Positions 3,733-12,716 of a stretch of DNA of 44,893 bases are shown here, in pieces. How positions within the stretch are numbered: position 1 is the stretch's first letter; each line of letters opens with the position of its first letter. Origin of the DNA: a virus (lineage: Duplodnaviria > Caudoviricetes); IMG/VR virus record IMGVR_UViG_3300022183_000013, positions 1-44,893 of that record; one strand, given 5' to 3'. The position numbers and the translations under genes are program-made. A model generated the notes under the pieces. It did no database searches and was not told the DNA's origin. It saw only the letters and a program-made list of their open reading frames with translations.

Positions 3733-3937
3733 TCCCAAACGGGCTCCCAAATGGCCAAAACCGGCCATCGCGGCAATCCCAAAATGTTAGTGAATTCAAT
3801 GGCTGGGGAACCTGGATTCGAACCAGGACCGACGGAGTCAGAGTCCGTTGAAGACCCTTGATTTATCATGCCTTTTTCCCCAAACGCTGCTTTTCGAGCA
3901 CTATACATATCAATACCTTACCCGTTTGCTCCCAAAC
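3733..3937. promoter_or_regulatory. Putative integrase arm-type sites and IHF site around attP
   Basis: (T/C)CCCAAA(C/T/A) at 3733, 3745, 3777, 3878 and 3930; perfect IHF consensus TATCAATACCTTA at 3908-3920. Confidence 0.6.
3800..3850 (-). other. attP: attP core: 3' half of tRNA-Gln(CTG)
   Basis: Minus strand CAACGGACT-CTG-ACTCCGTCGGTCCTGGTTCGAATCCAGGTTCCCCAGCCA gives anticodon arm, T-arm and acceptor 3' end with CCA; no canonical D-arm; directly downstream of the integrase. Confidence 0.9.
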
Positions 3938-4958
3938 GATTTGTAGACATCGGAAGAATGTCCGCGCCATCTCCGAGAAGGCTTTCGCGAGAGATGTAGA
4001 CAGTGTCGAGAATGCGCCCGACGTCGGCCAACGAGTGACCGCTTGCGCCGGATATCTTCGCATGGGTCCATCCCGACACAATCGCCCATCGGGTGATCGC
4101 CGTCCCTCGTAGATCGTGGAACGTGAGGCCGACAATCCCGGCGCGCTTGGCCGCTTTCCGCCATGAACTGGAGAAGCCATGAGAGGTGTAGGGGCGATCG
4201 CTTTCGTTGGTTACCATCTGGGGGCCGCGCTTTGGTTCTGCCTCTAGCTGGGCGCGCTCCAATGCGGTCAACTCTATTGCCACGCGCGTGCCGGTCTTTT
4301 GTTGCCTTAACCGTATTGTCCCGCCTTGGTAATCGGACCATCGCAGCTTAAGGATGTCTCCTTGCCGCTGTCCCGTGGCCAGCGCGAGGAACATCGCGAA
4401 CTGGAGAGAGTGCGAAGCGTTGGCGTAGAAGGCGTCGACATCGGCTTTCGTCCATACACTGTCCGCCCTTGTCGACCGGTAGAGTTTTCGAACCCGCTCT
4501 AGTGGGTTGGCTTCAATAAGACCGCGATCATCGGCCCATGATAATACAGCCTTCAGCACGGCGATTGTGTAATCGGCCTGCCGGACAGATGACCTTGCCA
4601 GCTCGTCACGCCATTCAAGGATCACGCCTCTTGATTTCTTGGCCTTCAATGCGATCAGGGGGAGTTTGCCAAATTTGGTCTCGATTTTCTTGACGTGCTT
4701 CACGTAGTCGGATCGAGTGCGATCGGCCAGACGGGCGAAATCAGCGGAGTCTTGGTATCGCCTCAAAACATGAAATAGAACCTTGGCGGTTGATTCCGGT
4801 CTCGCCTTCGATGCGGCGGTGTAATTTTCTAGGAATTCGGGTGTGCCCGGCTCGCCATGAATCCTTGGGCCTCCCTTGCCGTAGTAGTAGTAGGTTTGCA
4901 CCGAGCCGTCGGCGAGCTTACAACGGACTCGATTTATGTTTTTGAGGTTGGCCTTCAT
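3918..4958 (-). CDS. int: Tyrosine recombinase (phage integrase)
   Basis: TGQRQGDIL (Arg), FHDLRGT (HxxR), SGHS...VY catalytic motifs; adjacent to attP. Confidence 0.95.
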   Translation of the reverse strand: MKANLKNINRVRCKLADGSVQTYYYYGKGGPRIHGEPGTPEFLENYTAASKARPESTAKVLFHVLRRYQDSADFARLADRTRSDYVKHVKKIETKFGKLPLIALKAKKSRGVILEWRDELARSSVRQADYTIAVLKAVLSWADDRGLIEANPLERVRKLYRSTRADSVWTKADVDAFYANASHSLQFAMFLALATGQRQGDILKLRWSDYQGGTIRLRQQKTGTRVAIELTALERAQLEAEPKRGPQMVTNESDRPYTSHGFSSSWRKAAKRAGIVGLTFHDLRGTAITRWAIVSGWTHAKISGASGHSLADVGRILDTVYISRESLLGDGADILPMSTNRLGANG

Positions 4959-5173
4959 TTTTCAGTCGCCAAAAGGAATTGATCCAGCGCTTGATCCGGG
5001 TTGGTTTCCACGTCCATCGCGACGCCGTCGCTGGCGTCATCGGTGGTGAGCACTTCCATTGTGCCTTCAGCGAAACCGAACCTCAGCCGCCGGATAGGAA
5101 CGCCGGCAGCAGTGACCGCGCCTAGTGTGCGCTTGATGTCGTCGACTGTGAAGGCTGCCGCGCGCCTGGCCAT
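4955..5173 (-). CDS. Probable excisionase / recombination directionality factor
   Basis: 72 aa, overlaps the int start (ATGA); MARRAAAFTVDDIKR N-terminus typical of small genes upstream of alphaproteobacterial phage integrases. Confidence 0.6.
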   Translation of the reverse strand: MARRAAAFTVDDIKRTLGAVTAAGVPIRRLRFGFAEGTMEVLTTDDASDGVAMDVETNPDQALDQFLLATEK

Positions 5174-5187
5174 GGTCTCTATCCCTC

Positions 5188-5289
5188 CCTACGTTCACCG
5201 GCCAATTTGACGGCCTCCGCACCCGCCGCGTCGTCGGCAAAGCGAACATGATACCTACGTTCACCGGCCAATTTGACGGCCTCCGCACC
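5188..5289 (-). CRISPR. Mini CRISPR-like array B: two identical 36-nt repeats, one 30-nt spacer
   Basis: Repeat (minus strand) GGTGCGGAGGCCGTCAAATTGGCCGGTGAACGTAGG at 5188-5223 and 5254-5289; spacer 5224-5253; internal GGCC...GGCC hairpin. Confidence 0.8.
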
Positions 5290-5383
5290 TGATGAAGAGC
5301 AACCGATTGATTGGCCAAAGCGATTTCGCTTCGCGGCTGGAGAATTCCTCCTCCAGCCGGTCCGCGCGGCCCCGCATGGGCCG
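5290..5383 (-). promoter_or_regulatory. Leader/structured region of array B
   Basis: Perfect IHF consensus AATCAATCGGTTG (5300-5312, minus) 10 nt from the first repeat; hairpins at 5318-5331, 5334-5359 and 5367-5383. Confidence 0.55.
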
Positions 5384-5399
5384 TAATTTTCTGCGTTGA

Positions 5400-5597
5400 T
5401 CACGCCGCCAGAGCCGGTTTCTGTGCCTCGACGGCAGGGCGATTGAGCGCCTGATGGAGCGCGACTTCTTCCGCTTTCACGGCGGCAAACCCAGCCCGCG
5501 CGGCGGCGTCCGCGTGCTCGGACGAAATCTGATCGGCCAGGCACCGCTTGCGGACTTCGGCCATATCGTTGCATACGTCTTTGAGATGTTCGTTCAT
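5400..5597 (-). CDS. Small hypothetical protein between the TnpB-like gene and array B
   Basis: 65 aa, ATG overlaps the stop of the TnpB-like gene (ATGA), ends in AA. Confidence 0.65.
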   Translation of the reverse strand: MNEHLKDVCNDMAEVRKRCLADQISSEHADAAARAGFAAVKAEEVALHQALNRPAVEAQKPALAA

Positions 5598-6982
5598 GCT
5601 GCTTTCCTTCTCTTTTTGATGGCGCGACGTGCGCTCTTTACTTCCGCCACGGCGGCGGAAATCTCTTTGCCGATGGCGGCGCGCGGCGCTTCATCCGTTG
5701 TGGATCGAAACGCAATGCCCGCTTCATTGGCCTTGTATTCGAGAAACTGAATTGCTGTACCGGGGGCTTGTTCCAGGATCGCGCGATTAACCATGGCCAC
5801 GGTTCGAACGGCGTTCCCGTGGTTTTGCTTGTCACCCTTCGCGGACTTGGTTGTTGTCTTGATGGCAGGAGCGATCAAAGTGATGTCGCCAGCGCCCTTC
5901 AATAACCCGCTTGTCCATTGATGGAGGGACTCGCGACGGATGCGTGCGGCTTTGCCGCTGGCGAGTTGCGCTCGTCTTGTCCACTCTTTCCACCGCCGCG
6001 ACCCGCGTTTGAAGCGGGTGTCGCGTTCGGATTTGATCCGGTCAGCCTTTACCGTGAGGCGGGCGGCAGCTGCCATTTGACCGACTTCAACGCCCACATT
6101 GGCGGGCGGCGGCGTTCCTGTCCCCCTGTCGTCACCGGCTATTTGACCGGCCTCAACACCCTGCTCGGCCACGAGCCGGTACCACTTCACCCTGTCGTCA
6201 CCGGCTATTTGACCGGCCTCAACACCAGATGTTGAATAAGCCGTTGAAGTAGGCTGGTGATTCGCGACTTCCGTCATTGGAAAACGCGGGGGGGACATCC
6301 CCCCATTCCGCTCAACGCGAGCGAATTCGTCGATTAGGTTCATGTGAACGGTAAGGTCATCCGAGCCGGAAACGCGCCGGGCGGGCAGTTTCACCACGGC
6401 GGATAACCACCATGCGCCCTCGCGCCACAATACCTCACATGACCGGATTTGCTCGGGCTCGGTTGGGTCGATTGGAAACCGACCACGCACCTTTACTTCG
6501 CCTATGCCGAAAAACTTAGCGCGCCAGAGCTTCCCGGCCTTGTGCATCTTCCACCCACGATCACGGAACGGTATGGACGGGTGCCGGTCAGGATGACGGA
6601 ATCTCGGGTGCCCCGCTTCGGCGAAACTCTTGCCCTCTTTCAGGCGCCGGAAGAAAGCGGCATACGCCAAGTCGACGGCCTTGATGGCAAGTGCGGCGGT
6701 TGCTGCGGACAGATCCTGAAATTCTGGGCACTCGGAACGGAGCGTTTTGACCTCTTTGGACTGATCGTAAAACGATAGCGATTTGCCGCGCCGTCGGTAG
6801 CACTCCTCGCGTTGCTGAATGGCCGCGTTCCAAATATCACCGCACAAACGCCGCTGAACATGCATCGCGTGGGCCTGGGCCTTGTTCGGGTACATTTTGA
6901 AGGTGTACCGCCGCGCGAACAATTGTTGCGAGGCTGACGGATGATTCGCTATTGTCGTTTCCGAGGAGCGAAGATCGGTCAT
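5594..6982 (-). CDS. TnpB/Cas12-family RNA-guided DNA-binding protein, predicted nuclease-dead, with an in-frame CRISPR-like insertion
   Basis: TnpB motifs RRYTFKMYPNKAQ, IWNAAIQQR, VDLAYAAFFRR..GHPRFR, WWLSAVV, RRESLHQWT, KSAKG...NRAILEQ..G..IQFLEYKA. RuvC-I reads LTVHMNL (no Asp), RuvC-II reads LIAPAI (no Glu), and the Zn ribbon and RuvC-III are missing. RBS GGGAGAG before ATG 6982. Confidence 0.85.
   Translation of the reverse strand: MTDLRSSETTIANHPSASQQLFARRYTFKMYPNKAQAHAMHVQRRLCGDIWNAAIQQREECYRRRGKSLSFYDQSKEVKTLRSECPEFQDLSAATAALAIKAVDLAYAAFFRRLKEGKSFAEAGHPRFRHPDRHPSIPFRDRGWKMHKAGKLWRAKFFGIGEVKVRGRFPIDPTEPEQIRSCEVLWREGAWWLSAVVKLPARRVSGSDDLTVHMNLIDEFARVERNGGMSPPRFPMTEVANHQPTSTAYSTSGVEAGQIAGDDRVKWYRLVAEQGVEAGQIAGDDRGTGTPPPANVGVEVGQMAAAARLTVKADRIKSERDTRFKRGSRRWKEWTRRAQLASGKAARIRRESLHQWTSGLLKGAGDITLIAPAIKTTTKSAKGDKQNHGNAVRTVAMVNRAILEQAPGTAIQFLEYKANEAGIAFRSTTDEAPRAAIGKEISAAVAEVKSARRAIKKRRKAA
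6059..6226 (-). CRISPR. CRISPR-like array A inside the TnpB-like ORF: two identical plus one degenerate 36-nt repeats, two 30-nt spacers
   Basis: Repeat (minus strand) GGTGTTGAGGCCGGTCAAATAGCCGGTGACGACAGG at 6191-6226 and 6125-6160; degenerate copy at 6059-6094 on the same 66-nt period; spacers at 6161-6190 and 6095-6124. Confidence 0.8.
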
Positions 6983-7136
6983 CACCGCTCTCCCGCCTCT
7001 GGTGACCAATCCCGCAATCGCACGGTCGACTTTCTCAACACCCAGATTGATTTAGCCGGGCATACTCCAGCCGCGCCTGCTCCGGCGACGACGGGGGTCA
7101 CGATTTTACAAACAAGCACGCCGCCAAAATCAGCCA

Positions 7137-12041: not shown

Positions 12042-12716
12042 TTAGGCGGCTTTGTCGGATTGCTCGGAGGCGACTGGCGCGGGCTGTTTTTCGAGCCAAT
12101 CGAGCGCGGACCCGACGGTCGACTTAACGTCCTCGGGGCCGTCGTAATCGTCGGAAAGCCAGTGTTCGCGGGCGTGCTCAACCGGGAAGCACCGGCATCC
12201 CGCATAGACAATCCACTCGCCGTCTTCGGCGCGGGCGATCCACGAATAGCCGCGCGGGTCGCTAACCGGCAGTTTCTTGATTGAATGCTGACCGATCAGG
12301 TCGGCCTCGCTTAGGCCGGCACCGCGCAAATCGGCCTCGCGCAGGTCGGCACCGCGCAAATCGGCGCCGCGCAGGCTGGCGCCGCGCATGTCGGAGCCGC
12401 GCAGGCTGGCATCGATCAGTTCGGCACCGTTCAGGCTGGCGCCGCGCAGGAAAGCACCGTGCAGGTCGGCATCGATCAGACAAGCACCGCGCAGGTCGAC
12501 ACCGTTCAGGTCGACACCGCGCAGACCGGCCTCGCTTAGGTCGACACCGCGCAGGTCGCAACCGCGCAGGTCGCCACCGTTCAGGTCGCCACCGTTGGCG
12601 AGCCCCCACTTAACCGCCAAGCCAATCTTGACCGAGCGAAGCGCATTTTCATCACAATCGATTTCAGCGGTGAATTGGACGTTGCCTGTCCAGCGGTTTT
12701 TGATCTCGAATTTCAC
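12042..12716 (-). CDS. Pentapeptide-repeat protein
   Basis: MKFEIKNRWTG N-terminus, a long run of (A/G)(D/S)L(R/S)G pentapeptides, C-terminal AGCRCF...AREHW domain. Confidence 0.92.
   Translation of the reverse strand: MKFEIKNRWTGNVQFTAEIDCDENALRSVKIGLAVKWGLANGGDLNGGDLRGCDLRGVDLSEAGLRGVDLNGVDLRGACLIDADLHGAFLRGASLNGAELIDASLRGSDMRGASLRGADLRGADLREADLRGAGLSEADLIGQHSIKKLPVSDPRGYSWIARAEDGEWIVYAGCRCFPVEHAREHWLSDDYDGPEDVKSTVGSALDWLEKQPAPVASEQSDKAA

Follow-up and report, generated by a model that had tools for sequence, protein, structure and literature searches.

A nuclease-dead TnpB-like phage gene with a CRISPR array in its reading frame: a candidate host-programmed silencer of rival elements

What use has a phage for a TnpB-like protein that has lost its catalytic residues, and what does a CRISPR-like array do inside the gene that encodes it? 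The question is raised by the IMG/VR virus record IMGVR_UViG_3300022183_000013, a stretch of 44,893 nucleotides (hereafter the window, meaning the whole stretch analysed), in which a gene that we call the effector gene is accompanied by two repeat-spacer arrays. The original prediction had seen here a phage-domesticated TnpB acting as a repressor programmed by CRISPR RNA (crRNA). The dead TnpB-fold gene with an in-frame array is a real object under selection, and in our view it probably encodes a TnpB-derived, RNA-guided DNA-binding silencer that would be programmed by the host and directed mainly against rival elements, chiefly capsid-forming satellites.

The first step in answering the question is to establish what the protein is. 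The window protein passes the NCBIfam guided_TnpB profile (101.3 bits, cut-off 100), has RdCas12n (9J09) as a PDB sequence match, and its AlphaFold2 model (mean predicted local distance difference test score of 69) has ISDra2 TnpB (8h1j) as the top Foldseek match (E 1e-14). The WED-REC-RuvC fold and the sequence similarity place it in the TnpB/Cas12 superfamily. Cas12m structures rank 21 and lower in the Foldseek list, behind TnpB and Cas12f, and the Cas12u1 (Cas12m/V-U1) profile matched neither the window protein nor four insertion-free relatives at E 0.01. WED and REC are intact. Alignment to 11 apparently active sister proteins puts a histidine (H213, in LTVHMNL) in the RuvC-I aspartate column and an isoleucine (I370, in LIAPAI) in the RuvC-II glutamate column; the protein ends 47 amino acids past YKA with no CxxC, zinc finger or RuvC-III, and a conserved basic helix replaces the C-terminal half of RuvC. 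The membership in the TnpB family and the catalytic losses on which the original prediction was built are therefore borne out. Residues ~228-300, which correspond to the leader and the in-gene array, are modelled as disordered, and without this insertion the effector would have ~390 amino acids. An in-frame TTG at 7009 would lengthen it by 9 amino acids.

The loss of the active site is not peculiar to the window. Homologue searches returned 29 homologues and then 416 representatives at E <= 1e-30, of which the best 150 of 416 were taken further; 135 proteins of 340-620 amino acids from these 150 and the query made an alignment of 136, with 8 distant TnpBs left out. One clade (support 0.985 in FastTree, 124/125 kept and one gappy row dropped) comprises 125 of the 136 aligned proteins, and by this phylogeny the family of the effector is monophyletic and comprises at least 125 proteins. 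Among these 125, aspartate is present at RuvC-I in 10, glutamate at RuvC-II in 4, both in none and a C-terminal CxxC in 1, the figures for the 11 sisters being 10 with the aspartate, 10 with the glutamate and 9 with CxxC. The sisters match the Cas12u4 (V-U4/Cas12n) model best among the profiles tested (E 1e-64 to 1e-69), and the window protein matches it over residues 312-426 only (E 9e-12). The loop following RuvC-I exceeds 65 amino acids in 69 members, measures 31-65 in 16 and is limited to 30 or fewer in the remaining 40. Examination of 68 homologue loci, many of them redundant or partial, identified 19 distinct relatives with in-frame arrays, most of these at one shared position and some at a further one within the WED domain; some other loci have arrays upstream or downstream only. 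According to their record titles the homologue genomes are mostly from Alphaproteobacteria. Two loci (L034 at 4761-4970, 5442-5530 and 5851-6141; L064 at 1697-1905 and 2226-2390) hold two unrelated repeat classes each, one of 29 nt (60/61 period) and one of 36 nt (66 period), at two different in-frame sites, and the hairpin pairing described below holds for both classes. We presume the geometry of the 29-nt class to resemble that of type I-E.

Both arrays announced by the original prediction were found. Array A has two 30-nt spacers with a 66-nt period and lies inside the effector open reading frame (ORF) and in frame with it, and array B, with one 30-nt spacer, begins 305 nt past the effector stop and has a repeat identical to that of A at 25/36 positions. 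The repeat motif occurs in 5 copies in the window, compared with a mean of 0.20 in 100 shuffles. In the relatives L009 and L010, whose proteins are 93% identical to that of the window, the leader-proximal spacer A1 is wholly unlike; in L010 both A1 and the single spacer B1 are replaced by unrelated spacers of the same length and the distal spacer A2 is common, so that spacers differ between even such close proteins, just as had been expected of homologues of a guide system. This pattern, the newest spacer replaced at the leader end and the older one kept, indicates that spacers are acquired, and the locus shows the linkage of a TnpB-derived effector with arrays of variable spacers by which type V CRISPR-Cas systems are generally recognised. 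The two ends of one contig (L150 1-270 and L003 6715-6986) carry one array in two forms, one of which lacks an internal 66-nt unit that the other has, a difference that may be a population polymorphism or an assembly effect. In L002, a 94-nt near-exact duplication (5431-5524 and 6413-6506) that includes coding remnants of the effector DQFARVER stretch precedes the downstream array, which suggests that the in-ORF cassette was the source from which the downstream one was copied.

Does the array respect the gene in which it lies? All 43 of the regular in-ORF units are multiples of 3 (66, 60, 72 and 75 nt), and outside ORFs the units other than 66 nt are multiples of 3 in 11/34. For the 29-nt repeat class, in-ORF units are of 60 nt in 6/6 cases and units outside ORFs are multiples of three in 4/13. 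Stop codons occur in the ORF frame in 0/40 in-ORF spacers and in the other two frames in 9/40 and 9/40, a stop-free count that is partly favoured by the discovery of the loci through protein homology. On these counts the in-ORF array is translated. Each insertion in the ORF would add 22 residues to the disordered loop, and because it lengthens the protein, only spacers that keep the frame and are free of stops would survive.

The guide itself seems to be of the TnpB kind. Upstream of repeat 1, by 59-86 nt, lie hairpins of 5-9 bp with a 5-nt loop, the positions 2-5 of which are complementary to repeat positions -6 to -3. Choosing the hairpin blindly gave the full 4-bp loop/repeat match in 13/18 arrays, a value reached by 1 in 100,000 label permutations, with 59/72 paired cells in the true register vs 22-32/72 in slid registers. 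Loop and repeat covary (TGTC/GACA, TGCG/CGCA, TCTC/GAGA, CCTG/CAGG, CACG/TGTG and TGCC/GGCA), each of the two cassettes of the window has its own matching pair, and the pairing at -6 recurs in unrelated 29-36-nt repeat classes (L018, L019, L021, L027, L033-35, L039, L051 and L064). A long anti-repeat above shuffles was absent within 400 nt upstream of 18/20 arrays. TnpB, Cas12n and Cas12f guides have a common pseudoknot core (PMC12216341), and in Cas12p a pseudoknot forms between crRNA positions -1 to -4 and the trans-activating RNA (tracrRNA; bioRxiv 2025.01.20.633832). The hairpin and the 3' end of the repeat are likely to form a split omegaRNA-type pseudoknot. The pairing of the hairpin with the repeat 3' end would fix the orientation of the guide as repeat-then-spacer on the mRNA strand, with which the match of the L065 spacer, perfect at its 5' end, is consistent. 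The covarying pairing refines the notion of crRNA programming, in that a crRNA by itself is probably not the whole guide and a tracr-like hairpin is required as well; this hairpin, the leader motifs and a conserved 65-aa ORF between the arrays had been missed by the original prediction. The hairpin centres lie at -59, -70 and -80/-83 from repeat 1, about one helical turn apart, a spacing that would also fit a role at the DNA level.

If spacers are acquired, which proteins write them? An integration host factor (IHF)-like site is found at -23 to -25 in 18/18 arrays of 66-nt period, in or out of ORFs, with a mean score of 6.8/9 against a background of 4.3 (maximum 4.9 in 1000 draws) for the IHF consensus. 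Type II-C cas1 is present in 52/301 alphaproteobacterial genomes; arrays were found at 24/29 alphaproteobacterial II-C loci, and of these 24 arrays, 23 have a 66-nt period and 19 have their top-scoring IHF-like site between -22 and -24. A sequence model of the phage leader-repeat junction finds, in register, one II-C junction of a host (L132) at E 0.002 and another host junction at E 0.19. In type I-F, IHF and leader motifs are described as steering Cas1 integration into diverse repeats (bioRxiv 2023.05.26.542337). Since the IHF-like site of the phage arrays is phased as in host II-C leaders, host Cas1-Cas2 likely adds the spacers, and we infer a borrowing of host II-C adaptation; the origin of the spacers, left unspecified before, would accordingly be refined to the host's adaptation proteins.

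Two spacers point to the elements against which the guides would be directed. The L063 spacer matches at 28/30 positions the capsid gene of a ~10-kb element in the carrier's own host assembly; this element has integrase, portal, protease, connector, capsid, TerL and HNH genes with no tail gene, and a separate portal and terminase are present in the carrier prophage. Such a gene set fits phage-inducible chromosomal islands that form capsids (PMC10085698), a likeness of gene content. The L065 spacer matches (22/22 at the 5' end) the portal gene of an element with integrase, primase, portal and capsid genes, cut by a contig end, again in the carrier's own host assembly. Beside this targeted satellite-like element lie genes for a PAAR-domain protein and a lysozyme/pesticin-like protein (L137 8751-10876). 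In total, satellite-like elements account for 2 targets, the carrier phage for 1 and a Sel1-type gene class for 1, most spacers being unmatched, and by these matches the earlier expectation of guides aimed at host or competitor genes fits. So far as sequence can tell, nothing that the original prediction had named as refuting it was found.

Placing these results into one model, the early-operon mRNA would be processed into guides consisting of hairpin scaffold, repeat and spacer, the omegaRNA being split into a tracr-like part and the repeat. Host II-C Cas1-Cas2 with IHF would insert the 66-nt units in trans, other repeat classes in relatives being served by other host systems. The effector would bind its target and act as a roadblock like Cas12m and TldR, blocking transcription of rival elements, with the small protein encoded by the coupled 65-aa ORF as its predicted partner. 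A fuller version we advance tentatively, as quite possible rather than probable: temperate phages would carry a type V lineage that is new, with the CRISPR locus within the effector gene, the leaders of several host CRISPR types lying between the two parts of the split omegaRNA, and host Cas1-Cas2 would write spacers into coding sequence, each immunisation rewriting an effector that, dead as it is, would silence with its small partner the capsid-forming satellites that steal phage tails.

Several results weigh against such a silencer of rivals. Searches of the carriers' own host assemblies matched 2/20 spacers, and an exact protospacer was found for none of the window spacers, the search for a target of A2 giving none. 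The newest spacer of L002 matches, at 30/30 and with exact ends, an HTH_36 gene in the replication region of its own phage. Spacer A1 reads in frame as a Sel1 motif, matches Sel1-gene DNA at 27-28/30 in 1/401 genomes and is also present, with no repeats, on a contig with flanks read as Sel1-like; because Sel1 genes are common, this match names a gene class and not a protospacer. The self-match and the Sel1 likeness together mean that the targets are not only competitors. The 5' flanks disagree (CC at both satellite targets, GTG at the self-match), so that no protospacer-adjacent motif is established. As to the hairpin, the blind choice missed 5/18 arrays (by eye, another hairpin was chosen in two, the boundary was off by one in two, and one pairs at 3/4 positions), and L004, L053 and L068 showed no pairing hairpin. 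With only 22 candidates scored per genome, the leader-repeat model recovered no host array in a further 150 alphaproteobacterial genomes, and cas1 was present in only 1/5 host assemblies checked, the arrays of which have unrelated ATTGAAAC-ended repeats. Stops or frameshifts interrupt several homologue genes (L023, L024, L026, L044 and L053 groups), and the discovery bias in the stop-free count belongs here too.

The self-match of L002, the 28/30 likeness of A1 to Sel1-repeat genes and the position of the locus in the early operon beside the integrase would all suit the same RNA-guided binder if its selected role were to regulate host or own phage genes, as TldR does, and the satellite matches were incidental captures. 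This explanation survives best among the alternatives and is still unlikely, as spacers turn over between near-identical phages, unlike the conserved target described for fliC-TldR (bioRxiv 2023.11.30.569447), and the genes matched in host assemblies are in both cases head genes carried by small mobile elements and not housekeeping genes. It is rather improbable that the dead protein serves to target some other activity, one supplied by a host factor or by the product of the small coupled ORF, or that it binds RNA instead of DNA: the small ORF is kept in 32/48 loci with a readable 3' end, a conserved basic helix has taken the place of the RuvC C-terminal half and both satellite-matching spacers (L063 and L065) are antisense to the target mRNA, but spacer A1 and the L002 spacer have the sense orientation of the genes they match, DNA-targeting TnpB has the nearest fold, and no integrase, sigma factor or nuclease is constant among the 106 neighbour proteins of 19 loci.

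The arrays could also be viral mini-arrays or repeat decoys for host Cas9 sitting in the tolerant loop of an unrelated gene; phage mini-arrays and repeat decoys are known (PMC11656645), and the 36+30 geometry and the leader phase equal those of host II-C. This we hold to be improbable by a wide measure, because published mini-arrays are described as having host-identical repeats (PMC11656645), whereas the best identity of the phage repeats to 19 host II-C repeats is only 13-20/36; moreover, they fold more strongly (mean z -2.3 vs -0.8 for host II-C), a second repeat copy was not found in 6 incomplete host assemblies of relatives, and the covarying hairpin pairs with unrelated repeat classes, always beside the dead-TnpB effector. 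Least credible, and in our opinion very improbable, is a TnpB relic in decay whose arrays are kept with no function, for despite the broken homologues, the degenerate terminal repeats and the near-duplicate spacers of L022 and L036, the 125-protein family is monophyletic with conserved non-catalytic motifs, covarying RNA pairs, frame selection and recent spacer turnover. We retain the host-programmed silencer as the preferred reading.

How does this silencer compare with known systems? Cas12m (V-M/V-U1) is alike in its inactive RuvC, its array mostly lacking adaptation genes and its interference by DNA binding, and is described as enriched on plasmids and present in some prophages (PMC11656645, PMC11013384, PMC10691335); it differs in that the window family lacks a Cas12u1 match, is structurally nearer TnpB/Cas12f, has no zinc finger and holds its array in the gene, and in that Cas12m is described as using a single crRNA with no tracrRNA whereas a covarying upstream hairpin is predicted here. 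TldR is likewise a dead TnpB, in some cases lacking the C-terminal zinc finger and RuvC, with no transposon ends, and its fliC-linked clade is prophage-borne (bioRxiv 2023.11.30.569447); the window family is also a dead TnpB outside a transposon context. However, TldR is described with one omegaRNA, a fixed guide and a constant partner (fliC_P, oppF or csrA), in contrast to arrays with turnover, and none of these partners was seen among the 106 neighbour proteins. Cas12n (V-N/V-U4) is close in that the nearest active sisters of the window family match its profile, and its tracrRNA is described as overlapping the ORF with a pseudoknotted guide (PMC12216341), but it is an active nuclease with the D/E/D residues and the CCCC finger that the window protein lost, and only its tracrRNA overlaps the ORF, whereas here leader and growing array do. 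Mobile IS200/IS605 TnpB has an intact D-E-D RuvC, a zinc finger and a tnpA neighbour; the window effector lacks the first two, and no tnpA was found among the scanned window ORFs or the 106 neighbour proteins.

Viral mini-arrays and the conflict of ICP1 with PLE resemble our case in having 1-2 spacers per array, inter-element conflict and a phage that targets a satellite (PMC11656645). Mini-arrays, however, borrow the host effector and copy the host repeat, whereas here the phage supplies the dead effector and would borrow adaptation only, and ICP1 carries a full type I-F system. The classified type V groups V-U24, V-U43, V-U44, V-O and V-P combine arrays with a RuvC that is inactive or altered, a small helix-turn-helix protein accompanies V-U24, and inactive type V lineages arise repeatedly (PMC10691335, PMC12669027); the available parts of these descriptions do not mention an in-gene array, and as the comparison is with descriptions only, overlap is possible. 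Our literature search, which left subscription papers and the V-U/V-O/V-P member lists largely uncovered, found no dead TnpB/Cas12 with an in-gene array described; those lists having been compared by description only, a prior listing of the family is possible. The window family likely works as Cas12m or TldR does, yet falls outside the definitions of both. An array within an effector gene is an unusual architecture, and new here are the covarying hairpin, the host-like leader phase, the frame-keeping units, the coupled two-helix ORF and the satellite-like targets.

Table 1. Features of the effector locus and its surroundings in the window
Feature	Position	Strand	Remarks
Effector gene, nuclease-dead TnpB/Cas12-like	5594..6982	-	462 aa; identified by profile, PDB sequence and fold
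In-ORF tracr-like hairpin A	6288..6304	-	loop ATGTC on a stem of 6 bp; repeat nt -6..-3 are complementary to loop nt 2-5 (pseudoknot predicted)
GCRAATC-type conserved motif	6259..6265	-	~38 nt before repeat 1; candidate RNA scaffold or leader element
IHF-like site, array A	6237..6249	-	-23 from repeat 1; 7/9 consensus positions
Array A repeat 1	6191..6226	-	36 nt, hairpin-forming; translates GVEAGQIAGDDR in ORF
Spacer A1, leader-proximal	6161..6190	-	in-frame VKWYRLVAEQ; 28/30 to Sel1-repeat gene DNA
Array A repeat 2	6125..6160	-	identical to repeat 1
Spacer A2, older	6095..6124	-	common to L009/L010, drifted at 5' end
Array A degenerate terminal repeat	6059..6094	-	26/36
Conserved 65-aa ORF, two-helix pattern	5400..5597	-	helices read from alignment; overlaps effector stop (ATGA)
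Tracr-like hairpin B	5367..5383	-	CGTA of the B repeat (-6..-3) is complementary to loop ATGCG, with one G-U pair
Leader B	5300..5328	-	CGAAATC motif 5322-5328; IHF-like site 5300-5312 at -23, 9/9 positions
Array B	5188..5289	-	repeats 5254-5289 and 5188-5223 (identical, 36 nt); spacer B1 5224-5253; ribosome-binding site of next gene directly after
Excisionase-like ORF (72 aa) and tyrosine integrase	3918..5173	-	excisionase from position, with no family match

The surroundings of the locus (Table 1) are those of a temperate phage, with terminase, portal and recombination genes and a tyrosine integrase identified in Pfam and PHROGs scans of the window ORFs. The effector gene lies in the early operon and adjoins the integrase; its start overlaps the preceding stop (TGATG) and its stop the following start (ATGA), in agreement with the translational coupling originally proposed. 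The reported absence of tnpA, cas1 and cas2 holds for the window ORFs scanned, 33 long ones with PHROGs and 10 with Pfam, some short ORFs being unscanned. Neighbours of the family loci are phage early genes, and the 106 neighbour proteins gave no match to cas1, cas2 or tnpA. An ORF of 65-100 amino acids stands at or near the effector stop, usually with the ATGA overlap, in the 32 loci counted above; these small ORFs align as one family, resemble unnamed viral clusters and gave no convincing Pfam match, and the 65-aa ORF likely encodes an accessory protein.

Other observations concern the window at large. Downstream of the last B repeat, a ribosome-binding site and first codons are common to the window (5173-5187) and L010 (5830-5860), after which the genes differ, and by this comparison the gene change directly behind array B is a module swap. 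A 131-codon open frame (5179-5574, minus strand) spans array B with a 66-nt period and is probably a shadow frame. Duplicated gene-start stretches (6968-7004/7123-7159, 37 nt, 84%; 7156-7174/7288-7306, 19 nt, exact) surround small ORFs upstream of the effector and are possibly recombination joints of gene cassettes. An apparent tRNA-like 3' fragment just beyond the integrase (~3800-3900, judged by eye) is a candidate phage attachment site (attP), and a tandem repeat at 12297-12588 (15-nt period, 19.5 copies) fits a pentapeptide-type repeat in ORF 12042-12716.

For the evolution of TnpB, the preferred reading offers a concrete route to an adaptive system, in which the omegaRNA pseudoknot would be kept, a host-type leader inserted and programming borrowed from Cas1-Cas2. 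It would also be a CRISPR array under protein-coding constraint, the frame and stop codons filtering the spacers that survive. The phase of the leader and the covariation of the 4-bp pairing are exact and cheap handles for tests, and the family represents naturally dead, predicted RNA-guided binders of ~380-400 amino acids with a tolerant insertion loop. Taken together, the locus points to an RNA-guided conflict between helper phages and their satellites in Alphaproteobacteria.

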